The translations under genes and the position numbers were made by a program. From a virus: 64,000 bases of DNA. The DNA lies in IMG/VR virus record IMGVR_UViG_3300042691_021876, positions 1 to 64,000 of that record, one strand, 5' to 3'. The number at the start of each line of letters is the position of its first letter. Positions within the stretch are counted from its first letter, which is position 1. The notes below the pieces were generated by a model. It ran no database searches, was not told the DNA's origin, and saw only the letters and a list, made by a program, of their open reading frames with translations. Shown one piece after another: positions 6,380 to 61,437 of this stretch.

Positions 6380-6442
6380 AGAGCAAAATTAACCAATTAA
6401 ATTGAATAAAGCAAACTTTTTAATCCAAAGTTATTAACAACT
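6380..6442 (-). promoter_or_regulatory. class I promoter with DnaA-box-like TTATTAACA (6431-6439)
   Basis: minus strand TGTTAATAA-N15-TTTG-N20-TAATTTTG; perfect Bacteroidota -33/-7 consensus. Confidence 0.8.
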
Positions 6443-6875
6443 ATATAAGACCTTTAAAAGAATCGTCTTTAGCGCCAATTATGTCAAACGCAATCACTTG
6501 CTTAATTTCTACTTCGTGATCGTCATTAATAGAACCGACGCATCTTGGGCGCATAACAGCAAACCCATGTTCAAGCATACTTAATGCTGTTTTGCCATTC
6601 ATATTATTAAGGAATGTTGCGTCAGCAAAAACTATGTCTTCTTTAATGTAAACGTCGTCAATCGTGTGTGATGCTTTACTAAGGTCAACTGCACCGAAAG
6701 ATTCACCGTCTACGTACGATGGGTAATGTAATTCACCAAACATAGGTTTATTGTCATTAAGGGTTTTTCTATACTGAGATACGATTTCTTTAGCAGCGTC
6801 TTTAGTATAGATTCTGTCATTTCCATTACTTACTCCTATTTTAAGGACAGGTATTAACTTAACTTGTTCCGGCAT
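6441..6875 (-). CDS. prohead protease (gp21)-like paralog, probably inactive
   Basis: NGNDRIY, GELHYP, ASH and FDII motifs; canonical SSRG replaced by RPRC. Confidence 0.7.
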   Translation of the reverse strand: MPEQVKLIPVLKIGVSNGNDRIYTKDAAKEIVSQYRKTLNDNKPMFGELHYPSYVDGESFGAVDLSKASHTIDDVYIKEDIVFADATFLNNMNGKTALSMLEHGFAVMRPRCVGSINDDHEVEIKQVIAFDIIGAKDDSFKGLI

Positions 6876-6877
6876 AA

Positions 6878-7135
6878 TTAAAATGGTAAATCATCATGTT
6901 TTTTAGCTTCTGCCTTTGACAGCAAATGCCCCAAGTCTTGGTAAGCATCTGCAAGAATCATTCCAGCATTTTCTAATTTTTTGCGGATCTTCTTTTTCTT
7001 CTGAGCTAACGGATGATCTATTAAATGGTCTTGTACATTACATAACACAACGTGTGTTCTATCAAGTAACTCTAAGTAGTGACCATCGTTTATTTCAATC
7101 TCAATCTTAATCTTCTTTTCTTTATTTTTTCCCAT
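6878..7135 (-). CDS. hypothetical protein
   Basis: 85-aa ORF ending DDLPF. Confidence 0.65.
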   Translation of the reverse strand: MGKNKEKKIKIEIEINDGHYLELLDRTHVVLCNVQDHLIDHPLAQKKKKIRKKLENAGMILADAYQDLGHLLSKAEAKKHDDLPF

Positions 7136-7149
7136 AGTAATAGTTTATT

Positions 7150-7177
7150 GTTATATTCAGAATTAGACTTAAGGTTC
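7150..7177 (-). promoter_or_regulatory. class II promoter
   Basis: GAAC-N18-TATAAC. Confidence 0.7.
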
Positions 7178-7561
7178 TTTACTATATTGATCTTTTACTT
7201 TTTGTGATATTGGAATTGCGTCCCCGCCTTCATCTATTCTCACAAACTTCATGTTTGTTGATAGTATAATTGATTGCGTTCCCGAATACACATTGTGCGA
7301 ACGTGCTTCCATATAAATTGTGATTGATGTAGTTCCTATTGCTCGGACCTCACCATAGATTTTAATTAGCTGGCCTTCTCTAGCAGGTTTCTTAAAAACA
7401 CATTGGTCAATCATTACAGTAACCATTCTTGGTGTATCACAAACTTGCATTGCATAAGCCGCTGCAGCTGCATCTAACCAAGCTAAAAGTTTACCGCCAA
7501 ATAAATTTCCATGAAATCCTAAATCAGATTTCTTAATTGGGTGTGTTGAGATTAGTTCCAT
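7169..7561 (-). CDS. hotdog-fold acyl-CoA thioesterase (YciA-like)
   Basis: DLGFHGNLFGGKLLAWLD, MVTV, FKKP, GTTSI motifs. Confidence 0.85.
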   Translation of the reverse strand: MELISTHPIKKSDLGFHGNLFGGKLLAWLDAAAAAYAMQVCDTPRMVTVMIDQCVFKKPAREGQLIKIYGEVRAIGTTSITIYMEARSHNVYSGTQSIILSTNMKFVRIDEGGDAIPISQKVKDQYSKEP

Positions 7562-7764
7562 TATAAATCTGGGTTTACTTCAATTATATGAGGAGCTGTA
7601 TATAAGTGCATAAGAGTCCCAGCGCAATCACTGTCTAATCCTATAATCCAATTTTTACCAAGCTCTTTTACATCACCTGGGCATACCAAGAAATCGTGTA
7701 TGTATTGGCTTTGCTTTAACAGATCTTGTTTCTGTTCTACAGTTTTAACAATTATCTTTATCAT
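7561..7764 (-). CDS. hypothetical protein
   Basis: 67-aa ORF coupled to neighbours. Confidence 0.5.
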   Translation of the reverse strand: MIKIIVKTVEQKQDLLKQSQYIHDFLVCPGDVKELGKNWIIGLDSDCAGTLMHLYTAPHIIEVNPDL

Positions 7765-7904
7765 ATGTTTTCATATTTATAATTTTCCATAAAGGAAAAT
7801 ACTTGTTAAGTTGATTCATTATGTAATCATATGAATGATTTTCAAAATCAATGGTTACAACGGCAAAACCAACTAAAGGGACTATTGTTACAAATGTGTT
7901 CATT

Positions 7905-9212
7905 TTAATTACTTAAAGGTGCTGGAATATGTGGATGTGCTTTATAATCGTTTAACATAAAGTCCTCGATTTCAAAACTATCAATTAAACCGTTCATACC
8001 TTCAGTATAAGTACCAGGACCCATACCGCAGCCTTCATCCGTTCCAGGATTCCAAAACTCGGTATTCATTATAAGTTTTGGTAAAGGGTATGGAGTTCTT
8101 GAACGTTGAAGTATAGTTTCAAGTAAATCTCGTTCAGCCTGTCTTGCAGCAGCAGCCTCTCCATAGTTTTGTTTATTGATTTCGTCTATCTTTATTTTAC
8201 GAAGTCTTTTTAATTCAGGGTAGGTTTCTTCTAATTCTTCATCAGTATATTCTTTGCCAATTTGTTCTTTAGCTTGGTCTATATGATTTAAGTATAAGTG
8301 TGTATCTCCAAGATTTCCGATAAGTTGGTCGGGAACCATGTTTACGATTTCTCCAATGATACTTAAAAGCAATCCGTAAGATGCAATGTTAAAAGGCAAT
8401 CCAAGGAATGTATCAACACTTCTCTGATTCCACATTAAAGATACTGCTCTAGTAGGAATACGTAATTCATCACAATGCATGTAATTAATTGTGGTTCCTA
8501 ATTTCCATAACCCTCTTTCTGAACCATAATCAACTCTTTCCTTTAAAGTCAATTCACGAGTATATAATTGAAAGTCTGTATGACAAGGCGGCAAAGTCAT
8601 ATGATGTAATTCACCAACATTCCAAGCACTTACTCGGTTTCTTCGAGAGTCCGGATCTGTTTTTAGTAAATCTATTGCATCTTGAAATTGGTCAATGTAT
8701 CTTGAACCTGCAATATCTAAAGATTCTCCAAAGCTATCTTTTAGAGTTGACGGTATTCCTTCACCAACTCTCCAAGATCTCCACTGTGCTCCATAAATAG
8801 GGCCAAGACTGCCATACCTTTTATTAAAGTTATCGTCAGTCATAATCTTTTCTTCAAATTCTTTATGAGTTAAGCGAAGAGGATACGGTCCACTGAACGG
8901 TGGGTGTTCACAGTCAAAATCTTTATCATAAACCTTGTAAGCATCACCGGTCCAAATATGACAACCATTTTCTAATAAGTATCGTAAATCAGTACGTCCT
9001 TGTAAGAACCATAATAATTCTGTTACGATTAATTTCCAAGGAAGCTTTTTTGTTGTAAGTATTGGAAATCCTTCTTTCATATTGTGACGAACTGTATAAC
9101 CAAAAATACTTTTAGTTCCCGTTCCCGTTCGGTCTTCTTTTTCTACACCGTGTTCTAATATAGTTTTTAATAAGTCAGTGTATTGCTTATCTAACGTATT
9201 TAGTTTATTCAT
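7905..9212 (-). CDS. thyA: thymidylate synthase with insertions
   Basis: DRTGTGT, ELLWFL, LGPIYGAQWR, LPPCH, QRSVDTFLGLPFNIASY, DTHLYLNH. Confidence 0.95.
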   Translation of the reverse strand: MNKLNTLDKQYTDLLKTILEHGVEKEDRTGTGTKSIFGYTVRHNMKEGFPILTTKKLPWKLIVTELLWFLQGRTDLRYLLENGCHIWTGDAYKVYDKDFDCEHPPFSGPYPLRLTHKEFEEKIMTDDNFNKRYGSLGPIYGAQWRSWRVGEGIPSTLKDSFGESLDIAGSRYIDQFQDAIDLLKTDPDSRRNRVSAWNVGELHHMTLPPCHTDFQLYTRELTLKERVDYGSERGLWKLGTTINYMHCDELRIPTRAVSLMWNQRSVDTFLGLPFNIASYGLLLSIIGEIVNMVPDQLIGNLGDTHLYLNHIDQAKEQIGKEYTDEELEETYPELKRLRKIKIDEINKQNYGEAAAARQAERDLLETILQRSRTPYPLPKLIMNTEFWNPGTDEGCGMGPGTYTEGMNGLIDSFEIEDFMLNDYKAHPHIPAPLSN

Positions 9213-9565
9213 ATATATGTTTGTATCAAGTCAATGATTATAATAGACAGCTTGTAACCTGTAAATGCTCCTAATGCAGATGGAATAGGAAACACAATTA
9301 ATTGTCCTAATTCAGTTACATACTTTGGACGGTTCACTATTCTTCCCATAAAGAAGTAATAGACTATATAACCGCCAAGAACAGCAATATCTGTTCGGGT
9401 TGCTATAAAGACAACAAGAATTGCTCCAAGGAATCCAAATATAAAGTTGTCGCGAATACCTTCCCAAATCTCTTGAGCAGTAGCGTCTTTATATTCTTTC
9501 TTTATCCTACGGTGCAATTTATGTTTCTTAATTGAATTTGTTCCGAAGTCAGTGTGTTCACTCAA
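9209..9565 (-). CDS. membrane protein
   Basis: 118 aa, about 3 hydrophobic helices. Confidence 0.65.
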   Translation of the reverse strand: MSEHTDFGTNSIKKHKLHRRIKKEYKDATAQEIWEGIRDNFIFGFLGAILVVFIATRTDIAVLGGYIVYYFFMGRIVNRPKYVTELGQLIVFPIPSALGAFTGYKLSIIIIDLIQTYI

Positions 9566-9846
9566 AACTTATTTACTTTTAGTTCCAAAAATTCTTGTAG
9601 CTTTACACTTGTTGGTTTTGCTCCTGGGTGCTCTTCAGTATAACGGTATGTTTTATTATAACTTGTAGTCACAGCGATATCACCTTCAAGAAATTCAGCT
9701 AGTTCTAAAGAATCCCATTCAGCAATAATTTCATGATGATCGTCAACGATTGTGTAATGGTCGTTAGGTAATTTGTAAGCACGTACCACATCGCCTTCAA
9801 AATTGATAAGACCTAAGTACGGATAGTTTCTATTTGCAAATTTCAT
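9562..9846 (-). CDS. hypothetical protein
   Basis: 94-aa ORF. Confidence 0.6.
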   Translation of the reverse strand: MKFANRNYPYLGLINFEGDVVRAYKLPNDHYTIVDDHHEIIAEWDSLELAEFLEGDIAVTTSYNKTYRYTEEHPGAKPTSVKLQEFLELKVNKF

Positions 9847-9847
9847 A

Positions 9848-10090
9848 TTAGTGAATTTTAATAGTTGAGTATTCTTTAATTGTCAAGAATCTTTTGTCCG
9901 CTCTGTAATAGCCTTCCAATACTAATTCAAGCAAATCTTTTTTGTTTTCAGCTGTGTAAATAAAACTTGCTTTACCAGCATCACCACCAAGAACATACCT
10001 AATGTAAGTCCACCCGAACCAAGCTTTACGTTGTATCATAAAGATATCATTGTGCTTGACGAATCTAATTTTTATAGTTTTTGTTTTCAT
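9848..10090 (-). CDS. hypothetical protein
   Basis: 80-aa ORF. Confidence 0.55.
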   Translation of the reverse strand: MKTKTIKIRFVKHNDIFMIQRKAWFGWTYIRYVLGGDAGKASFIYTAENKKDLLELVLEGYYRADKRFLTIKEYSTIKIH

Positions 10091-10093
10091 ATC

Positions 10094-10480
10094 TTATAGT
10101 TGTACTTGGAAACGGTCTTTCATTCTATCCAAAGCTTCTTGTGGAACTCCATGTTCATTAACACCGCCATGTCGGTTCTCAACAATTAATGAGAACACTG
10201 TATAACCCAATTCTTCAGCAAGAATGTAGTATGCTTCCATTTCCCATTCTTGAGTAAATGTGTTAGAAACAATAACTTTAGGTTCACCGGCTTTCATTGC
10301 GTCCATTACAGAATGTCTACACCAGTTGTGAGCATCTTTAAGTTTAGTTGCATCAAACTTGTATTTGCCGTTTTTCATAAAGAACATATCAGCCTCAAAG
10401 TGTGCACCGCCAATTTCTTTGGCTAAAGTAGATTTCCCAGCGCCTGGTAAGCCTCTTAATAAAAATAAATGTTTTTCCAT
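10094..10480 (-). CDS. P-loop kinase (AAA_33, polynucleotide-kinase-like)
   Basis: LLRGLPGAGKSTLA, EADMFF, VSNTF, HGVP. Confidence 0.85.
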   Translation of the reverse strand: MEKHLFLLRGLPGAGKSTLAKEIGGAHFEADMFFMKNGKYKFDATKLKDAHNWCRHSVMDAMKAGEPKVIVSNTFTQEWEMEAYYILAEELGYTVFSLIVENRHGGVNEHGVPQEALDRMKDRFQVQL

Positions 10481-10495
10481 AGTTAATTATTATAT

Positions 10496-10556
10496 GTTAA
10501 AATTAACCAATAGTTTTCACAATGGCAAATTTAATCGTATGAAGTTATTAACAACT
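10496..10556 (-). promoter_or_regulatory. class I promoter with TTATTAACA box (10545-10553)
   Basis: TGTTAATAA-N15-TTTG-N20-TAATTTTA. Confidence 0.8.
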
Positions 10557-10927
10557 TACACAAGGTTTTCTAAATTCCAAGGATCCATTTGATTATAGTA
10601 ATCGTGTAGACGTTCTAACCATTTCAGCTGTGTTTCAGTATATGTTTCTGTAATGTGATCCCAATCTCTAAGTAATCCAGCCTCATCAGCAAGACCATCT
10701 TCAACTTCAGCAGGAACTACATAATCCGGGTTTTCATAAAACTTGTCCATTTCCAATTCCACTAAAGATTTCTCCAAGTCTATTAAAGTTCTATGATCTT
10801 TTACGTAATCATAATCTTCATCATTAAATATAATTCTCCATGTTTCACCTGTGGGATGGTTATACAGTCTTTCATATTCTGTATGTGTTACCAATGTAAT
10901 AATGTTTTCTTCTCTGTAAATACTCAT
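10556..10927 (-). CDS. acidic hypothetical protein
   Basis: 123-aa ORF. Confidence 0.6.
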   Translation of the reverse strand: MSIYREENIITLVTHTEYERLYNHPTGETWRIIFNDEDYDYVKDHRTLIDLEKSLVELEMDKFYENPDYVVPAEVEDGLADEAGLLRDWDHITETYTETQLKWLERLHDYYNQMDPWNLENLV

Positions 10928-10937
10928 AATAAAAATT

Positions 10938-11543
10938 TTAATTTGTGTCTAAACTATCTGGGTAATAAAGTAATGTTGGATTCTTCTTTTGTATATCAAT
11001 GTCAGGATATTTCTCACTAAAAGTTTTAACATCAAATCTTTCCGTAATTAAATGAAATCCATTTTTAGTTGGAATAGTAGTTACAACTTTATTTCCAGCG
11101 GGTCTAAGTTCATCAATAAAATTACCAACTGACACTAACGTTTTAAAATCCTTTGTATCGATGTCAACAATCCATCTCTTCTCTTGGGTTTTGATTTGAC
11201 CAACAACAGAATCAAATAAACCCTTTTGATTATTATTCCCATCTTGAATTCTTTGTGCTAAAGCAACCATCATATTTAAAGAAACGTCAAAGTGATTCTG
11301 CTTCTGAACATGAATATACGCGCGCGCTTTAAACATTTCACACAGTTGAATAACTTCATTATAACGTTTTTCTAAATGCTCAACACTTTCAATACAGTAA
11401 GTTTTAATTGTTCTTACAGACTGATGTTTATCTCGTTCACCAACAGGCTGATCTTTTTTACGCTTAAATACATAAAGCATATAGAAGTCACCAGGCTTTT
11501 CAAAATTTAAAAGTCCTTTGATTTGTTCAATGTTGTTTATCAT
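10938..11543 (-). CDS. conserved phage protein, possible AEP/primase-like fold
   Basis: WIVDID (DxD) and TKNGFHLI motifs resemble AEP motifs I and II. Confidence 0.5.
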   Translation of the reverse strand: MINNIEQIKGLLNFEKPGDFYMLYVFKRKKDQPVGERDKHQSVRTIKTYCIESVEHLEKRYNEVIQLCEMFKARAYIHVQKQNHFDVSLNMMVALAQRIQDGNNNQKGLFDSVVGQIKTQEKRWIVDIDTKDFKTLVSVGNFIDELRPAGNKVVTTIPTKNGFHLITERFDVKTFSEKYPDIDIQKKNPTLLYYPDSLDTN

Positions 11544-11550
11544 AATTCCT

Positions 11551-12024
11551 TTATTTTCCTAACATATCTTTATCAGATATTATAAGTGGGTTATCTTTTC
11601 TAAAGAAGTTTACCACTTCTTTAACCTTTTCGTTTGTAGTCCAAACAATACTATGTTCAGATTGCGGATTATACTCACCTTCTACAAGATATGCAACAAT
11701 TGTATTAGGTTCTAGTGTTAAGAACCCATGTGCTTTATCATTTGGAATTAACACGGCATCATCGGATCCTATAGCAAGAAATTCAGCGTCTCCTGTTTTT
11801 AAGTCAACTGCAAAATCAACGATTGAACCTTGAATAACTTTAATGTATTTTGTTTGCGGTGGATCTGTTTGATAATGAAGACCTCTAAATGTATATGCCT
11901 GTTCATTAATACTAATTGAACATTGGTCCCATGACAAGTCTAATTGATTTGTTAGTATTGGTGTATAAGAACCCCGGTTATCTTTAAATGTTTTATGTTC
12001 TATTCTTTCCATCTTATTCTTCAA
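11551..12024 (-). CDS. rmlC: dTDP-4-dehydrorhamnose 3,5-epimerase
   Basis: FKDNRG, FRGLHYQ, QTKYIKVIQGSIVDFAVDL, AHGFLTL, ISDKD. Confidence 0.9.
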   Translation of the reverse strand: MKNKMERIEHKTFKDNRGSYTPILTNQLDLSWDQCSISINEQAYTFRGLHYQTDPPQTKYIKVIQGSIVDFAVDLKTGDAEFLAIGSDDAVLIPNDKAHGFLTLEPNTIVAYLVEGEYNPQSEHSIVWTTNEKVKEVVNFFRKDNPLIISDKDMLGK

Positions 12025-12241
12025 AATGTTCTAAACTTGTTATGGTGTAACGGTCACCTGAGTATGCACCAACATTTTTTAATAGTTCTTCGTAACCATT
12101 CCAATCACCTTCTAAAGAATAATGGTATTCATTGCCGATGTCAGGTGTCATCATTCTTAATAAAATGTTATTTCTTGTTAGATCTTTTTCAAAATCCATT
12201 TTCTGCTCATCGGTAGCAATTATAGTTACAAAGATTTCCAT
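12014..12241 (-). CDS. hypothetical protein
   Basis: 75-aa ORF. Confidence 0.55.
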   Translation of the reverse strand: MEIFVTIIATDEQKMDFEKDLTRNNILLRMMTPDIGNEYHYSLEGDWNGYEELLKNVGAYSGDRYTITSLEHFEE

Positions 12242-12244
12242 TAA

Positions 12245-12823
12245 TTATTCATTTTCGTTATCGTTGTAGTAATCTTCATTATCGTCTGCTTGACGTAATG
12301 CTTTTACCACAGGGTCAAGATCTTCATCTTCATCTTCAGGATTTTCATCAAGATCATCATTTTCAAATGTATCATCATCAACGATTATTTCGTCTTCATC
12401 AATCTCATCATCAATAGATTCAAACTCATCAACCACAACCGGTTCAATATCCTCAAGAGCTTCAAGAGCTTCAAGTTTAAATTTGTTTGCTTTCTTGATG
12501 CGGAACTCAGCAGCCATATCATAAGGGACCTGTTCACCAGTTACAAGATTACGATAATTTGTAAATCCTAAAGCCTCGGCAACTATTTTGCTATCAGCAT
12601 AAGCATAACTTGTTTCTTTGCCTACTTCTTTAAGTAAGATGTTTTTCTTGAATCCAATAATGTCCCAGATACCTGCAATGGTATAATCAAAATCATCAAT
12701 AGTAACTTTCTTGCCAAGGTCTTCAGCAATCGTATAAGATGAGTGAATAAATTTTGCGTGTTCTTTAACATAAAGTTTTCTGCAAGTTTCTGCAGATTGC
12801 GGTTGTAATGAAATGTGTTTCAT
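12245..12823 (-). CDS. hypothetical protein with long acidic C-terminal tail
   Basis: last ~65 aa dominated by D/E. Confidence 0.7.
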   Translation of the reverse strand: MKHISLQPQSAETCRKLYVKEHAKFIHSSYTIAEDLGKKVTIDDFDYTIAGIWDIIGFKKNILLKEVGKETSYAYADSKIVAEALGFTNYRNLVTGEQVPYDMAAEFRIKKANKFKLEALEALEDIEPVVVDEFESIDDEIDEDEIIVDDDTFENDDLDENPEDEDEDLDPVVKALRQADDNEDYYNDNENE

Positions 12824-12827
12824 AGGT

Positions 12828-13109
12828 TTATTTAAGTCTGTTTAGTATTCTTGATTGAAGTTCGGCTATTCTTTTATCAAATTTGATTGCGTCTTCAATA
12901 GCGGTTGACGCATGTATTACTGAACCATGTTGAACTCGGTTATGTGCAGCTGCAATTTTTTGTAAAGATGCACCAGAATACCAGCGGCAAGCCCACATAC
13001 TCAAATGTCGAGCTAAAACTCTATCTTGACGACGAGATTGACTAATGATATCCTTAGCAGAGATTCCTGATTCCTCAGCAACGATTTTAATGATTTGGTC
13101 TATATTCAT
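12828..13109 (-). CDS. stand-alone DnaA C-terminal DNA-binding domain (domain IV, Bac_DnaA_C)
   Basis: IDQIIKIVAEESGISAKDIISQSRRQDRVLARHLSMW...SLQKIA...RVQHGSVIHA aligns with DnaA domain IV (basic loop, helix-turn-helix, RDHTTVxHA signature). Confidence 0.85.
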   Translation of the reverse strand: MNIDQIIKIVAEESGISAKDIISQSRRQDRVLARHLSMWACRWYSGASLQKIAAAHNRVQHGSVIHASTAIEDAIKFDKRIAELQSRILNRLK

Positions 13110-13130
13110 AATGATTAATTTATTAGAATG

Positions 13131-13158
13131 GTTGTATACTTCAACTTTTAATTAGTTC
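13131..13158 (-). promoter_or_regulatory. class II promoter for the mini-DnaA operon
   Basis: GAAC-N18-TACAAC (variant -10). Confidence 0.55.
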
Positions 13159-13356
13159 TTATTTTGTTGCAGGTTTTTCAAAAGAAAATACTACAAGCAT
13201 AAACCCCATGACAGAGGATAAAGCAAGAAAAGCAAATTCATTTTTACCGCCAGCAAAGTGGATGTAATTTTGAACAGTTCCAGTAGCAGTAAAATAAGCT
13301 AAAGTTAAAAATAAGATACCTAATAGCAAATGTTTAATAGAGATTGTAACTTTCAT
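13159..13356 (-). CDS. small membrane protein
   Basis: 65 aa, two hydrophobic helices. Confidence 0.6.
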   Translation of the reverse strand: MKVTISIKHLLLGILFLTLAYFTATGTVQNYIHFAGGKNEFAFLALSSVMGFMLVVFSFEKPATK

Positions 13357-13370
13357 AATTAAATTGTGTT

Positions 13371-13446
13371 TGATTAATATTGATAGTTAAAATTAACCAA
13401 TTAGAAGAAGCAAAGCAAATTCTAAATGTTAAATTTTTGTTAAACT
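13371..13446 (-). promoter_or_regulatory. class I promoter cassette, tandem TTTAACA type
   Basis: near-identical to 201-277. Confidence 0.8.
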
Positions 13447-13614
13447 TTACTTTTTCAATACAAAGCAAAATTCACCTTTAATTGATGACGTTAAACTTGA
13501 TGCTGTAGAAACAGCCACATGTTGAGCTGTTACTGAAACCACAAACCATCCAGCGGCAAGCATTTCATTAATAACAGATTCGTCTTTTGTAATAATTACT
13601 TTATGTTCGTACAT
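13447..13614 (-). CDS. small hypothetical protein (55 aa)
   Basis: MYEHKVIITKDESVINEMLAAGWFVVSV...; below the ORF-track cutoff. Confidence 0.6.
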   Translation of the reverse strand: MYEHKVIITKDESVINEMLAAGWFVVSVTAQHVAVSTASSLTSSIKGEFCFVLKK

Positions 13615-13631
13615 ATGATTTGATTTAGTTG

Positions 13632-13778
13632 TTAACGATCAGCTAATCTTTTGAAAACATCAATGTGCTCCATGATCTTTTCGTTTAAAGATTTCATTTT
13701 GTCATCCAAGAATTTTTTGTAATCCGCTTCAGTAGCAAATCCCATTTTCTTCCAGTCCATTTTTGTTTCTTGAGTCAT
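13632..13778 (-). CDS. small hypothetical protein (48 aa)
   Basis: MTQETKMDWKKMGF...VFKRLADR; fills the gap between neighbours. Confidence 0.55.
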   Translation of the reverse strand: MTQETKMDWKKMGFATEADYKKFLDDKMKSLNEKIMEHIDVFKRLADR

Positions 13779-13780
13779 GA

Positions 13781-14191
13781 TTATTTTCTTTTTCTTTGGT
13801 TATATTGCTCAGCAATTCTTTTACGAGATTCTGTAAAGTAGTCAGTATTTCCGTTAGACCATGCAGGGTACGCAGACCAAGATCCGTTTCTTAAATAAAC
13901 CAAAACCGTATCAAACGGAACTCCGTCAATATCGTAATAAGAACCATTTTGGCATTGACGAGTTTTAACACTTTCACGAATCAATTTTTTAATCTGCGGT
14001 AACGTATCTTTACGATGATCTACATAATCAGTGTAACCGGCTAAAGCATTTGCGGGTGTATAACAACTCAATATAAAATCAAGTTCAGTATTACCTTCAG
14101 TTTTATCTACTATTATAGTAGTAGCTTTGCGATTAAGAACAGTTACTCTTGTTTGTGTAATTGTTTTGTAAAAGAATTTATCGTCTGCCAT
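13781..14191 (-). CDS. hypothetical early protein
   Basis: 136-aa ORF directly after a class I promoter. Confidence 0.65.
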   Translation of the reverse strand: MADDKFFYKTITQTRVTVLNRKATTIIVDKTEGNTELDFILSCYTPANALAGYTDYVDHRKDTLPQIKKLIRESVKTRQCQNGSYYDIDGVPFDTVLVYLRNGSWSAYPAWSNGNTDYFTESRKRIAEQYNQRKRK

Positions 14192-14212
14192 AATAATGTT
14201 GTTTTTAATTAT

Positions 14213-14275
14213 AGAGCAAAATTAACCAAAATATAAACACAAAGCAAATTCTGAATGTTAAATTTTTGTTAAACT
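14213..14275 (-). promoter_or_regulatory. class I promoter cassette, tandem TTTAACA type
   Basis: tandem TTTAACA plus TTTG-N20-TAATTTTG. Confidence 0.8.
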
Positions 14276-14623
14276 TTAGATCTTATCCATTTTCTTTAAT
14301 AGTTCTCTACCGCTTTCAGTTGCAAAGAATACTTCGTCACCGTGTTCATCATCAATAGAACCAACGAATCCTTTCTTTTCAAGACTCATCATTCGTCCAT
14401 GAACTATGATTAACTTAAGCATTTTTTCAAACCATCCGTCTTCTTCAAAATTCATTTCACCATTAAGCCATTGTTCTAATAACATTGGTCCTGCAACTTT
14501 ACGAGTTGCTTCATAACCAAATTCTACAATGTCTTCATCAAAATAAAATCCGTCATCTACAAGACTTTCATAAATACCATTTAAGTATGTTTCAACTTCT
14601 TGGGGGTAAGTAGTATCAATCAT
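14276..14623 (-). CDS. hypothetical protein (possible winged helix at C-terminus)
   Basis: SLEKKGFV...FFATESG pattern. Confidence 0.6.
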   Translation of the reverse strand: MIDTTYPQEVETYLNGIYESLVDDGFYFDEDIVEFGYEATRKVAGPMLLEQWLNGEMNFEEDGWFEKMLKLIIVHGRMMSLEKKGFVGSIDDEHGDEVFFATESGRELLKKMDKI

Positions 14624-14844
14624 TATTTTTTAGTTAAAGATTCATACTTATTAATCATACTTCTCATGTTAAAGTATATGACGGTAAAAATACCAGCACC
14701 TACTGGGACAATCACCCAATCCATATCAGTTGGTTTATTAATTGACATGTACGTCATTGCAGCAGAGGCAACCCACATAAGTAATGCACACCAACCTGCT
14801 TGTGTTTTAAAATGTTTTGCTTCTTTTAATGTTTCTGGACTCAT
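14623..14844 (-). CDS. small membrane protein
   Basis: 73 aa, two hydrophobic helices. Confidence 0.6.
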   Translation of the reverse strand: MSPETLKEAKHFKTQAGWCALLMWVASAAMTYMSINKPTDMDWVIVPVGAGIFTVIYFNMRSMINKYESLTKK

Positions 14845-14862
14845 AAATTAATTGTTTTTTGA

Positions 14863-14928
14863 TTGATAGTTAAAATTAAACAAAAAATTCCAGAGTAGAA
14901 AACTCTGGAATCTAAAGTTTTTAACATC
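14863..14928 (-). promoter_or_regulatory. composite terminator + class I promoter with TTTTTAACA box
   Basis: hairpin TTCCAGAGT/ACTCTGGAA plus U-tract between the box (14918-14926) and the -7 element. Confidence 0.75.
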
Positions 14929-14929
14929 T

Positions 14930-16177: not shown

Positions 16178-16239
16178 GTATAAAATTAAACAAAAAATCC
16201 CAGAGTAGCAAACTCTGGGACTATAAGTTATTAACAACT
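16178..16239 (-). promoter_or_regulatory. composite terminator + class I promoter with TTATTAACA box (16228-16236)
   Basis: hairpin TCCCAGAGT/ACTCTGGGA plus U-tract; homologous to 14863-14928. Confidence 0.75.
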
Positions 16240-22822: not shown

Positions 22823-22884
22823 AGTTAAAATTAAACAAAAAATCCTACAAATAAAAATTTGTAGGACTAAAGTTATTAACAACT
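22823..22884 (-). promoter_or_regulatory. composite terminator + class I promoter with TTATTAACA box (22873-22881)
   Basis: hairpin TCCTACAAAT/ATTTGTAGGA plus U-tract. Confidence 0.75.
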
Positions 22885-24191: not shown

Positions 24192-24195
24192 GTTA

Positions 24196-36523: not shown

Positions 36524-36584
36524 TACAAATATAATAATTTTATTGTGAAATAAAAAACAATTAAGGATAAAGTTATTAACAACT
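36524..36584 (-). promoter_or_regulatory. class I promoter with TTATTAACA box (36573-36581) driving the sigma gene
   Basis: -7 element TATATTTG plus upstream TTG and box. Confidence 0.7.
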
Positions 36585-54968: not shown

Positions 54969-55439
54969 TTATTTTAATTGTTTTATTCTTGACCTTAACG
55001 CAGCAACCGCAGTTTCAAAATCATTAAATAATGGAACGTTAAATCTATGACAAACTATTTCAACATTACCTTTTCTCCAGAATCCGTCCGGACAGCAAAC
55101 TATTAGTCTATTACTATTAGCATGTAATCCTAATTCCAATAAAGTAATTGGTGATTTAGATTCTGGTAAGATGTTCATAAAGATTATATCAGCTTCTTCC
55201 AATTTGTCCATTTCCCAATTTACTTGACCATTAAACTCTGGATTAGTAGCTCTTTGTTCCCATGAAGAATCCCATTCATCTCTTCGAGGATTAAAGAATG
55301 TTACTTCACAATCATCGAGTTTATTCTGTACCTCTGTCTGCCAATCAACAGACGAACCCATATCTATGGAACCAGCTAAAAAAATCCCAGGGTAATTGTC
55401 CTGGGATTGATTAGAGCTAGTAGGTTTAATTACTTGCAT
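54969..55439 (-). CDS. nucleoside 2-deoxyribosyltransferase-like protein
   Basis: IFLAGSI, DWQ, FNPRR, QVNWE, SPITLLELG. Confidence 0.85.
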   Translation of the reverse strand: MQVIKPTSSNQSQDNYPGIFLAGSIDMGSSVDWQTEVQNKLDDCEVTFFNPRRDEWDSSWEQRATNPEFNGQVNWEMDKLEEADIIFMNILPESKSPITLLELGLHANSNRLIVCCPDGFWRKGNVEIVCHRFNVPLFNDFETAVAALRSRIKQLK

Positions 55440-56943
55440 TAGTCAATTCCATTATTTTAGCTCTGATTGCAGTCAAAGTAGTTTGGTTATAGAAGTTTCC
55501 GTTTTCATATATTGTTTGTAATACTCCCGTGTTCTCTTCTTCAGCAGAACATTGTGTTTTTACAGTGTATACACCGTTTTCTTCAATCACAGCACATTTA
55601 CCTTTTAATGATTTTTTAGTACCATCATCAGTTATTGGTTCTTTATAGATGTCAATCCCTTTTCCGTTATTCTCAAACCAAGCACCTTTTGCAGCGTACC
55701 CAAAAGTATCACGTGTAGTGAATTGGTATGTAAATGAACCTACACCTAAAACAATATTAGTTGAAGCAAATCCTTTAGCTTCTAATCTTGTATAGATTTC
55801 AATTTGACGGTCAAGTGTAATTGAATCTCCATAGATTGCTCCAATATGTGGGTCTAATACTTTGTAACCTTGAGCATTAATAGTACCGCCAAAGATATCC
55901 CAAAGTAATTCAATTACTCCTTTTTCAGCGGAATCCACGTTTTCATCGTATGGATTTTGTTCAGCATTCCAGCTTTTACCACAGATGATATCTACTGGGT
56001 CACCAGAGTCAGGACGAATTACAAGTTTACCATCACGTGACATGATTTGATCTTTGTTTGCTGGTAAATACTCAGTAATTAATTTCCATAGGTCAAAGGT
56101 ATCCGCTACGATAGAAAGGATTCCTTTATCAAATTCTGTTAACCAATCGGATATCATTTGTTGCTCACCTACGGTAAAAATTTTGGTAGTTGAGACAGAG
56201 TGCTCAGAAGCATTTACTGAAGCTATGCAAACTTCATCCTCAGATTCATCATAGAAATAACGGGCAGCTGGAATGACCACGATTGAGTCAGAACCCATAA
56301 AAGAAAAGGCGTGTCCAAGACCAGAAGATAAACTATCCCAAGGAGATAATCCACGAGCTGAGAAATCATGGCATAAGTAAGGAATTAACCAAGCATTTTC
56401 AGGGTCAGTTTTAGTTACCCATTTTACAAGGTTTCTTTTATACTGTAATGCAATAGTTGCAGAAGTAGCTGGTTTCCAAGCTAAAGATGAGATAATAGTT
56501 TCAAGATATAATGTTAACCAAGCAAAGCCAGGTACAGTGTTAATGAAAGTCATATGAGGAATATTTGCATCGGTCTCAATTCCTTCAGGTAAGGCTTTGA
56601 TTTTAATAGGCAAGTATCCTAAATCGTGTAGTGCTTCAAAGTGCGAAGCATCGTATGGCATACCTAAGTATTTTGCCATGTCAGTTCCAAATTTGGTTGC
56701 AGTTTCTCGTGGCATGCTAAAGAAATTCTCTTGCCATTCAGCATGTAACCAACGAACAGTTAATTGATGACCAATGGAAAGAATTTTGTCAATTCCTTTT
56801 GGTGCATGTTTTGTACTTCTTGGGATCCAAGTTCCGTATAAGAAATCCGTGCCTGGGGCAAGCATTCTTTTATGACCAACTTTATATCCGTCAGAATAAT
56901 AAGGAGCAGGTGCTCTAAAAGTCTTTTGTAATTTAGATAACAT
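55426..56943 (-). CDS. nicotinamide phosphoribosyltransferase-like (candidate Namat of NARP1)
   Basis: SDGYKVGH, HDFSARG, ASEHS, SIVADTFD, VIRPDSGDP, IYGDSIT, FTTRDT, KKSLKG. Confidence 0.9.
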   Translation of the reverse strand: MLSKLQKTFRAPAPYYSDGYKVGHKRMLAPGTDFLYGTWIPRSTKHAPKGIDKILSIGHQLTVRWLHAEWQENFFSMPRETATKFGTDMAKYLGMPYDASHFEALHDLGYLPIKIKALPEGIETDANIPHMTFINTVPGFAWLTLYLETIISSLAWKPATSATIALQYKRNLVKWVTKTDPENAWLIPYLCHDFSARGLSPWDSLSSGLGHAFSFMGSDSIVVIPAARYFYDESEDEVCIASVNASEHSVSTTKIFTVGEQQMISDWLTEFDKGILSIVADTFDLWKLITEYLPANKDQIMSRDGKLVIRPDSGDPVDIICGKSWNAEQNPYDENVDSAEKGVIELLWDIFGGTINAQGYKVLDPHIGAIYGDSITLDRQIEIYTRLEAKGFASTNIVLGVGSFTYQFTTRDTFGYAAKGAWFENNGKGIDIYKEPITDDGTKKSLKGKCAVIEENGVYTVKTQCSAEEENTGVLQTIYENGNFYNQTTLTAIRAKIMELTNASN

Positions 56944-56965: not shown

Positions 56966-57027
56966 ATAGTTAAAATTAACCAAAATAAAGATACTAAGCA
57001 AATATTTTGGTGCGAAGTTATTAACAA
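56966..57027 (-). promoter_or_regulatory. class I promoter with TTATTAACA box (57018-57026)
   Basis: TGTTAATAA-N15-TTTG-N20-TAATTTTA. Confidence 0.8.
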
Positions 57028-57501: not shown

Positions 57502-58142
57502 TATTGTGGTAAGATTACGATTGTTACTTTACAATCAATTAATTCTGTTTGAATAATTTTTTTGATTCTTTCCCAATCGCCACCAGCAAGACCAGCGCCA
57601 ATTTTAGGAAGACCTATATGAAGTCCTTTAAACTCAACATTTAGTTTTCTCATTACGATTGTGATTGCTTCATAATCCACGGGTTTGGAAACGCCGTCTA
57701 TATGATTCTTGCCATAACGATATTGTGTATAGGCATTCACAACAGTTAATTCAGGATCATTGTTAATGTTAGAATCCAATTTGCGATTCCATAGACCACC
57801 TTTAGATATTACAAAGGTTTCATAGTCAATGCAACCTAATTTGTTTATGCTTGGACCTTTAAGTTCTAAGTTAAATTTATCACAGCCAAAAGCTTGAGCC
57901 ATATGTGGAGCAATACCAGCTGCCATAGTTGAATGACAATTACAGCCATGAACAATTACATTAAAAGCACCTTCTTTAGCTAAGGCTATAAGATCACCGG
58001 TAACTTCAGAATATCTTGCTTTTAGTTTTGCTTCTTCTAATACATTAGTGATTGGCGATTCTTGGCATGGATCTATTTTACATTCACCATTACAAGGACC
58101 GTGTTCACAATACCAACAGTGGAGTCCAATACCTATAGCCAT
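57501..58142 (-). CDS. macrodomain protein with Cys-rich N-terminal extension
   Basis: GDL, IVHGCNC..TMAAGIA, VNAYTQY, LPKIGAGLAGGDW. Confidence 0.9.
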   Translation of the reverse strand: MAIGIGLHCWYCEHGPCNGECKIDPCQESPITNVLEEAKLKARYSEVTGDLIALAKEGAFNVIVHGCNCHSTMAAGIAPHMAQAFGCDKFNLELKGPSINKLGCIDYETFVISKGGLWNRKLDSNINNDPELTVVNAYTQYRYGKNHIDGVSKPVDYEAITIVMRKLNVEFKGLHIGLPKIGAGLAGGDWERIKKIIQTELIDCKVTIVILPQ

Positions 58143-59044
58143 TAGAATACGTTATAAACGTTAAGTTTATGTAATTCATTATCGTTTTGGATTGAAAACT
58201 CTGAATCATTTTCAGGACGGATTGAATTAGTTGTGTAAATTGCATCAAACAATTTGTTTAGTTCCTTTAGACCGCTTGAAAAGATACCGTGTGTGATTAC
58301 TAATGTTATAGTATCATTAAATATTTCTTGTGGTCGGATTTCACGAATTGCTTTTGCTAATTCAATAAAGGTTCTACCGCCATCACAAATATCATCAACA
58401 ATAACAAAGTTTTGTGGACCTGCTCCGTAATTACTTTGTGGTATTTCAGTATGAGTAATCTTACCGGTTTTAACATCACGGTGCTTATTTGCCACAATAA
58501 TTTTATCAATACTGAATGTTTCAGCCACATGATAAATTTTCTTTAATGCACCAGCATCAGGAGAAACAAGATGTAAGGTTTCTCGAGCGCCGTTTTTATT
58601 ATCAATCTTGGTTAAAGCAAACTTAACTAACCCTGTGTTATCAGTTTTCTTGAAGTTATTTAAACATGCTTCAAGAACATCGGAATGAGGATCCAATACA
58701 TGCACCTCTGAAAAATTCTGAGAGTTAATGATTGGGCAAATAACAGTCTTAAGGTAATTTGTAGAACCTATTAAGAATTTTCTATCAGATCTTGCACCTA
58801 AGAAATACGGAACATACAGACTAACAGATTTTGCACCAAGTTCAAGTAATGCTTGGTTTGCACAAATGATTAATTCCAAATCACGAAATGAGTTTAATCT
58901 TGATTTGATTTGAACTGATTTGATTTTGTTATTAAAAGAATACCCACTTGGCTCAATCGTAATAGATTGTTGACCGTCAGGAAAGCTTGAGATTTTAAAT
59001 CCAATTTCGGATTTTGTAGAATCTGCTAAATTAAGTATGTTCAT
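58142..59044 (-). CDS. ribose-phosphate pyrophosphokinase-like (candidate Adps of NARP1)
   Basis: FPDGQ, PYFLGARSDR, LDPHS, VSPDAGA, IVDDICDGGRTF, THGIFS; start re-assigned to MNILNL. Confidence 0.9.
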   Translation of the reverse strand: MNILNLADSTKSEIGFKISSFPDGQQSITIEPSGYSFNNKIKSVQIKSRLNSFRDLELIICANQALLELGAKSVSLYVPYFLGARSDRKFLIGSTNYLKTVICPIINSQNFSEVHVLDPHSDVLEACLNNFKKTDNTGLVKFALTKIDNKNGARETLHLVSPDAGALKKIYHVAETFSIDKIIVANKHRDVKTGKITHTEIPQSNYGAGPQNFVIVDDICDGGRTFIELAKAIREIRPQEIFNDTITLVITHGIFSSGLKELNKLFDAIYTTNSIRPENDSEFSIQNDNELHKLNVYNVF

Positions 59045-59058
59045 ATTATTTTTATTTA

Positions 59059-59123
59059 GATAGTTAAAATTAACCAATTGTTTTCACAATGGCAAACTTT
59101 AATCTAATAAGTTATTAACAACT
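59059..59123 (-). promoter_or_regulatory. class I promoter with TTATTAACA box (59112-59120)
   Basis: TGTTAATAA-N15-TTTG-N20-TAATTTTA. Confidence 0.8.
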
Positions 59124-59385: not shown

Positions 59386-59683
59386 TTTTGATTACGTCTT
59401 CACCATCTTTATATTTAGCACGAACTTCGGCTAAAAAGAATTTACCTTGAGATTCCGCGGCGCAAAATTCTCTATATGTTTCAGGCATGAACTTGCAGTA
59501 TTTGTATTTCTTGTCATTATTAAACGTAACTGTAAACTCATATTTTAAAGCATCATATGTAGTTTCTTTTAATAAAGATGATGTCCACTGTTTAGTTTCA
59601 GGAACGTATTCACGAGCATAGTCTCTCATGATTTGGTCTAATGAAACATGTTCATCAGAGCTAATTGGTAATTCGCTTTTCAT
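59354..59683 (-). CDS. KTSC domain protein
   Basis: SSLL...YD....TVTFNN...YKY......Y.EF.AAESQGKFF. Confidence 0.8.
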   Translation of the reverse strand: MKSELPISSDEHVSLDQIMRDYAREYVPETKQWTSSLLKETTYDALKYEFTVTFNNDKKYKYCKFMPETYREFCAAESQGKFFLAEVRAKYKDGEDVIKIEDNEHGKRP

Positions 59684-59685
59684 AA

Positions 59686-60633
59686 TTAAGAATTTAAAAT
59701 GATTTGAGTTTCAAATACTGCTGCAAGCATTGTAATGCAAGGATCAATCACGTGTACTCGTTGTGCTTGATAGTGAGCAATCTTAATTAAGATTTGCGGT
59801 ACCTTTGCAAATTTGGTAGGATGATTATCTCTTATGTAATCTGGAAGCTCTTGACCTAATGCATGAAGAACATCATCAACTTTACTACTATAATTTGTCA
59901 TTAAGAATTTGTAATTCTCTTGAGAATTTGGAGCACCAAGCACAAGATCAAATACATCACGATATGAATAGTTTAATTTACGAACATCTTCAGGCTGGAT
60001 TTCTTTTACACCTTGAACATGGAAAGTTTGAATTTTATTTACAATAGAACGCATGTCAGGAAAATTCCTTTTCACAAATTCAATTACTGCTTCTTTACTA
60101 ATAGTAATTCCACAAGCTGTAAAGATTTGGTATGATCTTTTAATAAACTCAACCATTACTTCTTTTTCTTCTTCTTTACTTAAAAAGTCAAAAGGAATAC
60201 AAGTAAACCTAGATTGAACTGGGTCTGGTACTTTATTAATGTAGTTACAAGTTCCGATGAATCTTGCGTTATTAGCAAATTTCTCAATCGTTGCTCTAAG
60301 AGCTTTGTAAAATTGATCACTTGCTCCGTCCATCTCGTCAAGAATAACCACTTTAAATTTTTCAGCGCCATCAAGAAGACTAATGGTAGAACACCATGTA
60401 GATATCTTATCACGGATTACATCAACTGAACTTTCGTCAGATACGTTAATGTAAAGTGTTGGATAGTTTTTTGCTAACACTTTTGCTAAAGAGGTTTTAC
60501 CTAAACCGGCTGAACCATAGAACAAGTAGTTCTGATGTAATTCGCCGTTACCTAATGATTGTCTGATTCTTTTTGGTAGAATCATTTGGTCCAAATTCTG
60601 TGGACGATATTTTTCTGTAAATAGTTTGCTCAT
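59686..60633 (-). CDS. clamp loader large subunit (gp44/RFC-like)
   Basis: EKYRP, GSAGLGKT, ILDEMD, FIGTCNY, QSRF, FPDMR. Confidence 0.92.
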   Translation of the reverse strand: MSKLFTEKYRPQNLDQMILPKRIRQSLGNGELHQNYLFYGSAGLGKTSLAKVLAKNYPTLYINVSDESSVDVIRDKISTWCSTISLLDGAEKFKVVILDEMDGASDQFYKALRATIEKFANNARFIGTCNYINKVPDPVQSRFTCIPFDFLSKEEEKEVMVEFIKRSYQIFTACGITISKEAVIEFVKRNFPDMRSIVNKIQTFHVQGVKEIQPEDVRKLNYSYRDVFDLVLGAPNSQENYKFLMTNYSSKVDDVLHALGQELPDYIRDNHPTKFAKVPQILIKIAHYQAQRVHVIDPCITMLAAVFETQIILNS

Positions 60634-60637
60634 GTAA

Positions 60638-60666
60638 TTTATATACTTAATGGTATACCTTAGTTT
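60638..60666 (-). promoter_or_regulatory. class II promoter (spacer variant)
   Basis: AAAC-N19-TATAAA. Confidence 0.5.
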
Positions 60667-60674
60667 TTAATTTC

Positions 60675-61355
60675 TTAATATTGTTTTCTTAATAATTCAA
60701 TTACATCCCAAGCATCTTCAACTGCATTGTGTGTAACTATTTCTGGTAATCCTGCTCTGCTTTTACATTCCGATAAGTTAGGCAAAGAATTGTCTTTAGC
60801 CCAATCAACAAAAAGAACCGCAGGATCTATTACTCGTTGTTGGATACGAATAAGTTTTTTCCAATTAGGAAGTCTTTCAAGGAATAGCTTATCAAATGTT
60901 CCGAAGTTTTTACCAGCCACTGTTACAATGACGGGTTTAGTTCTTAAGTTAACTACAGGAACCAAATGTCCTTCAATCCATTTAACTTGTTGACCTATGT
61001 TAATCTCTGTTGTTTTTTCACTGCTGATACCATTTATGTATAAGAATTGATAAATTGCTTCAGCAACTTCCTCCTCCTTCATAAATTGCATGCCAGTGAA
61101 ATGAACCATATCATTTTTCTCATCTTGGTCTACAGCAGTCTGATAGCTGTTAATCGTTTCAATTAAATCAGCGTTCATATTAATTGCGTACGGAGATCCA
61201 GAGATTCTATCTCTTAAGATTGCTATGTGTAATTTTGGAATTTCATCAAATGGCAGTTTCTTTGATGTATCTTCTAAGATAATACCTACTGATAAGACTT
61301 GGTCATTTTCAGGGTCAATACCGGTCGTCTCGATATCTATACTTAAATATTTCAT
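60675..61355 (-). CDS. DEDDh 3'-5' exonuclease
   Basis: SIDIETTG, GKNFGTFD, HNAVEDA. Confidence 0.88.
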   Translation of the reverse strand: MKYLSIDIETTGIDPENDQVLSVGIILEDTSKKLPFDEIPKLHIAILRDRISGSPYAINMNADLIETINSYQTAVDQDEKNDMVHFTGMQFMKEEEVAEAIYQFLYINGISSEKTTEINIGQQVKWIEGHLVPVVNLRTKPVIVTVAGKNFGTFDKLFLERLPNWKKLIRIQQRVIDPAVLFVDWAKDNSLPNLSECKSRAGLPEIVTHNAVEDAWDVIELLRKQY

Positions 61356-61377
61356 ATATGTGTAGTTTTAAATTATA

Positions 61378-61437
61378 TGCAAATATAAACAAAAAGTTCC
61401 GTAGTATTGCTACTACAGAACCAAATGTTTTTAACAA
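61378..61437 (-). promoter_or_regulatory. composite terminator + class I promoter with TTTTTAACA box (61428-61436)
   Basis: -7 TATATTTG; hairpin GTTC.GTAGTA/TACTAC.GAAC ending the portal transcript. Confidence 0.7.

Follow-up and report, generated by a model that had tools for sequence, protein, structure and literature searches.

A DnaA-box-like element in the early promoters of a T4-like phage of Bacteroidota and in front of host replication genes

The early promoters of the phage IMGVR_UViG_3300042691_021876, a distant T4-like myovirus (T4-type large terminase, gp20-like portal and sheath protein) whose host phylum is Bacteroidota, carry a short oriented element that resembles a DnaA box. 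The analysis centred on the first 64 kb of its 106,534-bp genome (hereafter the window), in which nine such promoters occur. The element stands at a fixed distance from the core promoter, recurs in the same slot in front of replication genes throughout the Bacteroidota, changes places with canonical DnaA boxes in orthologous host promoters and is found in phase with them in arrays. The reading favoured here, with somewhat better than even confidence, is that the phage carries a copy of a non-consensus and presumably weak DnaA box of the Bacteroidota that has been co-opted for early promoters. Host DnaA probably binds it and, if its upstream position is a guide, would activate from it, so that the first phage transcription is probably tied to the replication initiator of the host.

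The element and its place in the promoter

A preliminary description of the window listed nine early promoters preceded by the 9-mer TTWTTAACA. This 9-mer has 12 matches in the window, all 12 on the plus strand; the nine listed sites are all present, intergenic and upstream of Bacteroidota-type -33/-7 promoters, with the division into seven copies of TTATTAACA and two of TTTTTAACA that had been given, and the other three matches (20533, 22620 and 51820) lie inside open reading frames (ORFs). Enrichment of the motif, which the same description proposed to measure, was found for a longer form only: the 9-mer by itself is at chance level (a mean of 7.1 in shuffled sequence, with 12 reached in 7 of 100 shuffles), whereas the extended 11-mer GTTATTAACAA has seven matches in the window against 0.15 expected, a number reached in none of 100 shuffles. 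All eight copies of the 12-mer TGTTAATAACTT in the whole 106.5-kb genome are on the minus strand, with none on the plus strand; beyond the window, at genome position 84236, there is a tenth boxed promoter. As every gene of the phage is encoded on the minus strand, the box becomes T-TGTTAATAA-CTT along transcription, and the form to be regarded as the true element, on the coding strand, is T-TGTTAATAA-CT(T) and not the 9-mer alone.

The architecture that had been described, box-N15-TTTG-N20-TAATTTTR with TTTG as the -33 and TAATTTTR as the -7 element, was confirmed at the boxed promoters. In the copies free of hairpins the TTTG-N20-TAATTTTR core agrees with a Bacteroidota sigma-A promoter, for which a spacer of 19-21 nucleotides (nt) is required and the consensus is reportedly -33 TTTG / -7 TAnnTTTG. 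The end of the box is 39 nt from the 'TA' of the -7 element in nine of the ten boxed promoters and 40 nt in the other, which by estimate places the box between about -60 and -48 relative to the start site and immediately upstream of the -33 TTTG. Five copies have a strong hairpin followed by a T-run between the box and the -7 element (-13.6 to -17.1 kcal/mol), and in these the spacing is unchanged. In the hairpin copies (14870-14927, 16180-16237, 22825-22882, 61380-61437 and the region of genome position 84236) a hairpin of the intrinsic-terminator type is built into the promoter: its loop contains the -33 TTTG or a TTTT, and its T-run leads into the -7 element. Further phage contigs (L344, L286, L305 and L307) show this fusion too.

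The box starts 1-10 nt past the stop codon of the preceding gene (about 50 nt at 36581) and contains TAA TAA in one frame, and together with the hairpins that follow five of the copies this could be taken to mean that it belongs to the end of the upstream gene, as stop-codon context or part of a terminator, and not to the promoter. However, the distance to the stop codon varies while that to the -7 element is fixed, the spacing is the same in the hairpin-free copies, and the host copies described below lie in ordinary promoter regions with no gene end nearby. The spacing contradicts such an explanation, to which we give almost no credence. Nor does the box fit the Bacteroidetes SOS motifs (GGA-N5-TCC as well as CTAA-N5-TTAG), so that its identification as an SOS box was rejected, or the palindrome recognised by NrdR. 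The NrdR box is a 16-bp palindrome, acaCwAtATaTwGtgt. A reading of the phage element itself as a palindrome, AAGTTnTTAAnAACTT, was also discarded: in relatives at 57-67% protein identity TTGTTAATAACT(T) is kept but the upstream AAGT is not, and the near-palindrome is therefore not the conserved unit.

Occurrence in Bacteroidota genomes

The exact 13-mer followed by N11-13, TTTG, N19-21 and TAnnTTT was sought in one genome for each of 185,579 species. This yielded 117 bacterial loci, nearly all of them in Bacteroidota, including Bacteroides, Phocaeicola, Prevotellaceae, Muribaculaceae, Alistipes, Flavobacteriaceae, Capnocytophaga, Chitinophaga and Cytophagales, and the summed spacing in these loci peaks at 32-33 nt, the phage value being 32. 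Among 107 ORFs downstream of the host sites, 21 encode class I/II ribonucleotide reductase (RNR; lgN/lgC), three or four NrdD and 17 DnaE, and RNR or DNA polymerase III alpha make up about 40% of the downstream genes. Others, some of them single cases, encode DnaB, RecA, Tdk, FtsA, MurA, the ribosomal proteins S12 and L19, the gyrA product, and histone-like and OmpA-like proteins. Counted genome-wide, the 11-mer is present at 4-7 copies per host genome, equal to the control and so not enriched, which points to a specific site and not to a general sequence bias. Of 26 exact copies of the 11-mer in five host genomes, those with CTT or CTA next are intergenic and precede nrdJ, ftsA, gyrA, surE and other genes. 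With ten copies in 106 kb the phage has thus concentrated what in the host is a rare regulatory site. No cluster of canonical DnaA boxes was found adjoining dnaA in five Bacteroidia/Flavobacteriia genomes or upstream of Bacteroides nrdJ, and the box sites there are therefore promoters and not origins.

In four nrdJ promoters of Bacteroides and Phocaeicola (L129, L161, L193 and L223) a second conserved element, an inverted repeat around GTTTTCC...GGAAAAC, was seen 60-150 nt upstream of the box, together with a GAAAAC(C/T) half-site about 8 nt before it.

DnaA as the candidate binder

When the regions upstream of dnaE in 30 genomes were inspected blind to the motif, TTGTTAATAACTT was found three times, TTGTTGATAACT(T/A) three times and CTGTTCATAACTT once, and a perfect DnaA box, TTGTGGATAACTG, was found once at the identical distance of 36 nt from a -7 element TATCTTTG, where about 0.01 such chance matches would be expected. 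The regions upstream of nrdJ in 30 genomes gave TGTTAATAA[CG]T eight times and TGTGGATAAGT and TGTAAATAACT once each, several of them 15 nt from TTTG. Promoters of dnaE and nrdJ hence carry TGTTAATAA, TGTTGATAA or the canonical TGTGGATAA in one and the same slot, and across orthologous promoters positions 5 and 6 of the DnaA box vary while TTAT and ACA are invariant. In E. coli the recognition helix of DnaA domain IV reads TnCACA, Arg399 reads TTA, and the strict box consensus is TTWTNCACA (PMC5742627). The phage sequences TTATTAACA and TTTTTAACA have A for C at position 6 and so fall outside that consensus, but the box keeps TTAT and ACA, the parts that Arg399 and the helix read. A comparable alternation has been described in T5-like phages, where the consensus TTATCCACA gives way to TTATCAACA or TTATTAACA at equivalent positions (preprint 10.1101/866236); apart from this preprint, a search of full-text literature returned nothing relevant on the motif or on phage Bac_DnaA_C proteins.

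Boxes of the same family also form head-to-tail arrays. In 151 genomes 85 pairs of TGTKRATAA were found within 0-8 bp of each other, against 14 for the control, and the numbers for spacers of 0 to 8 bp were 1, 5, 45, 21, 7, 1, 0, 2 and 3. The commonest unit is TGTGGATAA-CT-TGTGGATAA, and TGTTAATAA is paired in phase with TGTGGATAA or TGTTGATAA in several genomes, being a member of 13 of the pairs at 2-3 bp; the CT that follows the phage box therefore corresponds to the array spacer. The box followed directly and in phase by TGTGGATAA occurs at both phage and host loci (L131, L152, L165 and L361). A comparison with the boxes at host dnaA, as the preliminary description had suggested, placed TGTTAATAA-CT among TGTGGATAA, TTATCCACA and TGTTGATAA directly upstream of dnaA in two Pfam-verified yidC-dnaA-dnaN loci, in one of which it is immediately next to the start codon. 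About eleven 9-mers of the TGTTGAWAA type, all in the same orientation, are gathered in a 500-bp intergenic region of Dysgonomonas (L253, G007 C22:112350-112700; L244), including the array TGTTGACAA-gt-TGTTGATAA-ct-TGTTAATAG.

Three further observations on host DnaA and its boxes may be recorded. The DnaA of the Dysgonomonas genome G007 has Asn at the position of E. coli Asp433 (KNHATVLHA), and residue 433 of DnaA and position 6 of the box may co-vary. One Bacteroidota genome, G050, has 19 dispersed in-phase pairs of DnaA boxes, mostly TGTGGATAA-CT-TGTKGATAA and far above the number in the other genomes sampled, which may represent a repeat element or an unusual system for DnaA titration. An identical 22-mer, TGTTAATAAAAATTGTGAATAA, is present in six genomes (G056, G104, G156, G060, G021 and G031) and is probably a conserved orthologous regulatory site.

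A number of considerations weigh against a DnaA box. The A at position 6 breaks a consensus outside which E. coli DnaA binds poorly, and the conserved element, at 12-13 bp, is longer than a 9-mer box, though its CT matches the host array spacer. When the promoter slot was searched for the 9-mer family by itself, the count exceeded the control only slightly (26 against 16, in 301 genomes), and the genes behind some host sites are ribosomal, rRNA, OmpA-like or histone-like, which would also fit a growth-rate element. Binding of DnaA to the box is a prediction, and activation is preferred to repression solely on the grounds of the upstream position. The earlier suggestion that host DnaA acts at the early promoters has thus held to the extent that the site is DnaA-box-like and that the host comparison makes DnaA the best candidate, whilst the binder and the sign of its effect are inferred.

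The length and strict orientation of the element would suit the site of another Bacteroidota-wide regulator, such as a lineage-specific factor for cell-cycle or replication genes, from which phages have borrowed it, and so would the dominance of TGTTAATAA over the canonical box at nrdJ and dnaE. It is difficult to reconcile with such a factor, however, that the canonical TGTGGATAA fills the slot in orthologous promoters and that canonical boxes are found both as in-phase partners of the box and beside it in the clusters upstream of dnaA. The sole candidate with the box in its own promoter is an XRE-family protein. Small regulators of this family (about 105-110 amino acids; L130, L203, L239 and L160/L449) carry the exact 13-mer in their own promoters and are probably genes of mobile elements that borrow a host signal; being sporadic (8 of 81 genomes, about 10%), the XRE protein was rejected as the binder. 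That a conserved factor other than DnaA binds the box is considered unlikely.

Boxed promoters in other phages

The 39-nt spacing is as fixed in the relatives L116, L121 and L122 as it is in the present phage. In L117 the distance to the -7 element is 49 nt in five of six copies, one helical turn more, and boxes 48-49 nt from the -7 element were noted both in L117 (six copies) and in L359. A shift by one helical turn argues for dependence on the face of the helix. A scan of IMG/VR for the box with its promoter returned 90 loci, of which about 50 have no gene in common with this phage in the stretch fetched and still present the same architecture, hairpin and +10 versions among them. G311 (126 kb) has eight boxes on one strand against 1+1 for the control, G318 (138 kb, 80% complete) has six against none for the control on that strand, and G312 has three.

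Tolerance of a one-turn displacement would also be expected of a UP-like element, recognised by the alpha subunit of RNA polymerase through its C-terminal domain; the box would then be a generic strength module of very strong promoters, as in T4 early promoters. UP elements are A/T-tracts at about -60 to -40 and are typical of rRNA promoters and others of great strength. The box lies at what we take to be the equivalent of the distal UP subsite of E. coli, the hairpin-free copies have an A-rich stretch between the box and the -33 element, and rRNA, S12, L19 and OmpA-like genes stand behind some of the host sites. Whilst the position fits, the sequence and the host gene set fit poorly. The G and C of the box are invariant and its variants are TGTGGATAA or TGTTGATAA and not A-tracts, exact sites are few in each host genome and about 40% of them stand before RNR or DnaE and not before the translation apparatus, and the box also occurs in arrays adjoining dnaA that are not promoters. 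A UP-like element must be judged distinctly improbable.

A stand-alone DnaA domain IV

The phage encodes a protein of its own (P0001, here mini-DnaA) that the preliminary description took for DnaA domain IV with an altered recognition helix, and on both counts it was right. The protein matches Pfam Bac_DnaA_C with E=2.3e-17 and 63.2 bits (cut-off 31.5) over nearly the whole profile (positions 1-68 of 69), its PDB matches are the DnaA proteins of Aquifex, Thermotoga and E. coli, and the 93-amino-acid ORF lacks both the AAA+ domain III and the N-terminal domain of full-length DnaA. QHGSVIHA aligns with KDHTTVIHA of Aquifex. In 17 homologues (51-95% identity), all of them stand-alone, Q-H-G-S-V-I is invariant where initiator DnaA reads D-H-T-T-V-L/I, so that Q-H-G replaces the Asp-His-Thr signature throughout, and an Arg equivalent to Arg399 is invariant too. 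The minor-groove Arg and His434 are kept, with Gln for Asp433, Gly for Thr435 and Gln for Pro423. The recognition helix of host Bacteroidota DnaA reads (D/N)HATVLHA or DHSTVIHA. Full-length DnaA almost always has Asp at position 433, where Q, N, T, S or R is found in the closest relatives of P0001. These changed residues suggest a different or shifted specificity. A word-index search confined to short forms gave 21 near homologues, all short (20 of 93-102 amino acids and one fragment of 56), and an exhaustive profile search showed short stand-alone DnaA-C proteins to be a very numerous, large and diverse class.

The claim that the gene lies behind a middle-type promoter was borne out at the level of pattern. 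All 22 copies of the motif RAACY-N15-17-ATAYAA in the whole genome are on the minus strand and none on the plus strand; 18 of them lie within 60 nt of a gene start, and one precedes the mini-DnaA gene (Table 1). The mini-DnaA is a separate, probably middle-expressed protein and a putative DNA-binding one. Other examples on the minus strand of the window are at 808, 3368, 7177, 18286, 24223, 37005, 37802, 53765 and 60666 (that of the mini-DnaA gene being at 13158), and those at 10516, 54933 and 61399 overlap boxed early promoters to give dual promoters.

From these elements a complete switch had been proposed, in which host DnaA gates the early promoters and the middle-expressed mini-DnaA later occupies the boxes and/or the host oriC to bring about shut-off. 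The protein is real, conserved in its lineage and placed behind a middle-type motif; Gln and Gly at the positions of Asp433 and Thr435, with Q, N, T or S in relatives, would be compatible with an altered reading of the box centre, and both groups of mini-DnaA phages carry TTAACA-type elements at early promoters. The expected co-occurrence of boxed promoters and mini-DnaA, however, does not extend beyond close relatives. No Bac_DnaA_C gene was found in the repeatedly boxed G311 and G318 or in G312, for which 64-138 kb of sequence was available, or in the near-complete records G319 and G332, and the Bac_DnaA_C cut-off was passed by 2 of 24 boxed phage records. In a more distant phage with an N-type mini-DnaA (L123/G001) the oriented 11-mer is not enriched, and its early promoters have TAACA-N6-TTAACA in the opposite orientation. 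Stand-alone DnaA-C proteins are, moreover, very common and not peculiar to boxed phages, and a functional pairing of box and mini-DnaA is not supported; for direct repression, too, a position of about -55 is unfavourable. The full switch is accordingly doubtful. The mini-DnaA might compete at boxes of the TTAACA type or for the DnaA sites of the host, but, as boxed promoters and mini-DnaA do not co-occur in other phages, this is unsupported and our expectation of it is low. A bolder version, to which we would give as little weight, is that the Bacteroidota possess a DnaA-dependent replication and cell-cycle regulon operating through the phylum-typical weak box TTATTAACA in a fixed slot upstream of the promoter, that several phage lineages have hijacked it for early transcription, and that the mini-DnaA, with its Gln and Gly, is a specificity-shifted decoy, preferring the A-centred box to canonical ones, which would switch off phage early genes and the host regulon in mid-infection.

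A second class of early promoter has GTTTAACAAAAATTTAACA in place of the box. On the opposite strand this sequence consists of two TGTTAA units with a 2-bp spacer (TGTTAAATT-tt-TGTTAAACT), inverted relative to the box. There are four such cassettes, nearly identical and about 100 nt each, two of which flank the neighbourhood of the mini-DnaA gene. With its 2-bp spacer the sequence follows the grammar of the host DnaA-box pairs, but inverted.

A proposed course of early transcription

The co-opted DnaA box would fit the following scheme. Bacteroidota place the box in one slot before genes for DNA replication, deoxynucleoside triphosphate (dNTP) supply and cell division, and in the clusters adjoining dnaA, and this phage, like several lineages of Bacteroidota phages, has it fused to strong early promoters. 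After injection the host sigma-A RNA polymerase would use the -33 and -7 elements, helped from upstream by a monomer of host DnaA on the weak box, on the same face of the helix at either 39 or 49 nt. Growing, initiation-competent host cells, being those with high DnaA(-ATP), would then support the strongest early transcription, which would follow the potential for replication initiation. The mini-DnaA would be made later, from its middle-type promoter.

Features of the window and neighbouring genes

The features discussed are collected in Table 1. As to the genes behind the boxed promoters, Pfam supports most of the assignments made earlier: RNA ligases 1 and 2, the AAA_33 kinase of the kinase/thyA operon, the sigma-70-family factor, the two NAD genes (NAMPT-like and phosphoribosyl pyrophosphate (PRPP)-transferase-like) and the RNase_T exonuclease. 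The gene at 21761-22804, previously called UvsE, has no Pfam or PHROG match.

Table 1. Promoters and the mini-DnaA gene in the window (positions counted from its first nucleotide)
Feature	Position	Strand	Remarks
Stand-alone DnaA domain IV (mini-DnaA, P0001), 93 amino acids	12828..13109	-	recognition helix QHGSVIHA
Middle-type promoter motif GAACT-N16-ATACAA	13132..13158	-	ahead of mini-DnaA gene
Second early-promoter class, GTTTAACAAAAATTTAACA in place of box	13427..13445	-	other copies 258-276, 4618-4636, 14256-14274
Boxed early promoter	6383..6440	-	TTGTTAATAACTT, N12, TTTG, N20, TAATTTTG; upstream of RNA ligase 1 (5286-6359)
Boxed early promoter	10497..10554	-	upstream of AAA_33 kinase (10094-10480); thyA (7905-9212) further along operon; middle-type motif overlaps
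Boxed early promoter	14870..14927	-	variant box ATGTTAAAAACTT; terminator-like hairpin (-15.7 kcal/mol) between box and -7
Boxed early promoter	16180..16237	-	embedded hairpin (-17.1 kcal/mol); upstream of small ORF and RNA ligase 2 (14930-16006)
Boxed early promoter	22825..22882	-	embedded hairpin (-13.6 kcal/mol); upstream of gene 21761-22804
Boxed early promoter	36525..36582	-	upstream of phage sigma-70-family factor gene (35837-36487)
Boxed early promoter	56970..57027	-	upstream of NAMPT-like gene (55426-56943)
Boxed early promoter	59064..59121	-	upstream of phosphoribosyltransferase-domain gene (58142-59077)
Boxed early promoter	61380..61437	-	variant box TTGTTAAAAACAT, 40-nt spacing, hairpin (-16.3 kcal/mol); upstream of RNase_T-like exonuclease (60675-61355)

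A megablast search with a 15-kb query gave no match to named phages, and no close named relative was found. Among the matches listed for an exact 15-mer in IMG/VR there were single chance hits only. The early region (5200-15000 of the window, mini-DnaA gene included) has matches at 88-99% identity in metatranscriptome assemblies from freshwater sediment and marine samples and in lake-water metagenomes; these are contigs only, from which no transcript starts can be read. A GC-rich block at 24000-32000 of the window (0.42-0.43 against 0.34) encodes two very large collagen-repeat proteins of 1169 and 919 amino acids, which are probably fibres.

Significance and comparison with known systems

That DnaA can act as a transcription factor at nrd and replication genes was known before, as was the presence of DnaA boxes in phages. 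New here are the phylum-wide, fixed-slot, A-centred variant of the box before Bacteroidota replication genes, the systematic way in which several phage lineages have fused it to their early promoters, and stand-alone DnaA domain IV proteins that form a clade and lack the recognition-helix Asp. If the favoured reading is true, a previously undescribed signal for a replication and dNTP regulon would exist in the phylum of the gut Bacteroidales and the aquatic Flavobacteriia, and unrelated phages of the Bacteroidota would wire their first genes to the replication-initiation state of the host. The finding supplies a concrete and testable DnaA-box variant together with its promoter architecture. 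The 13-mer with its -33 and -7 elements could be used as a compact, portable promoter module for Bacteroidota genetics, and the box as a marker of early genes in uncultured Bacteroidota phages, whilst an obvious object for work on binding specificity is offered by the DnaA domain IV proteins of stand-alone type, which are very common but have hardly been studied.

Compared with domain IV of DnaA in E. coli (1J1V) and Aquifex (1L8Q/2HCB), the mini-DnaA is alike in its Bac_DnaA_C fold, as judged by sequence, in the minor-groove Arg and in the His of the helix; it differs in being a stand-alone protein of 93 amino acids and in the replacement of Asp433 by Gln, Thr435 by Gly and Pro423 by Gln. The host sites resemble the DnaA regulons of E. 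coli (nrdAB and dnaA), Caulobacter and B. subtilis in that a 9-mer of DnaA type stands upstream of RNR and replisome promoters, and as in those regulons weak sites would suit the sensing of DnaA levels. To our knowledge no DnaA regulon has been described in the Bacteroidota. What sets the present case apart is that TTATTAACA, with A at position 6 and only putatively bound by DnaA, dominates in one slot and one orientation across the phylum. In carrying host DnaA boxes the phage is comparable to lambda (the pR/ori region), to P1 (oriR) and to the T5-like phages (the injection-stop region; preprint 10.1101/866236), but here a single box is placed at a fixed distance in each of ten early promoters and not in an array at an origin or injection stop, and the design recurs in several lineages of Bacteroidota phages. 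The early promoters of T4, with their UP-like upstream elements, offer a further parallel, since those of this T4-like phage, too, add to the host consensus on the upstream side, as far as about -60; the element that does so here is, however, a specific 13-mer containing G and C that is held in common with a host regulon, and not an A-tract.

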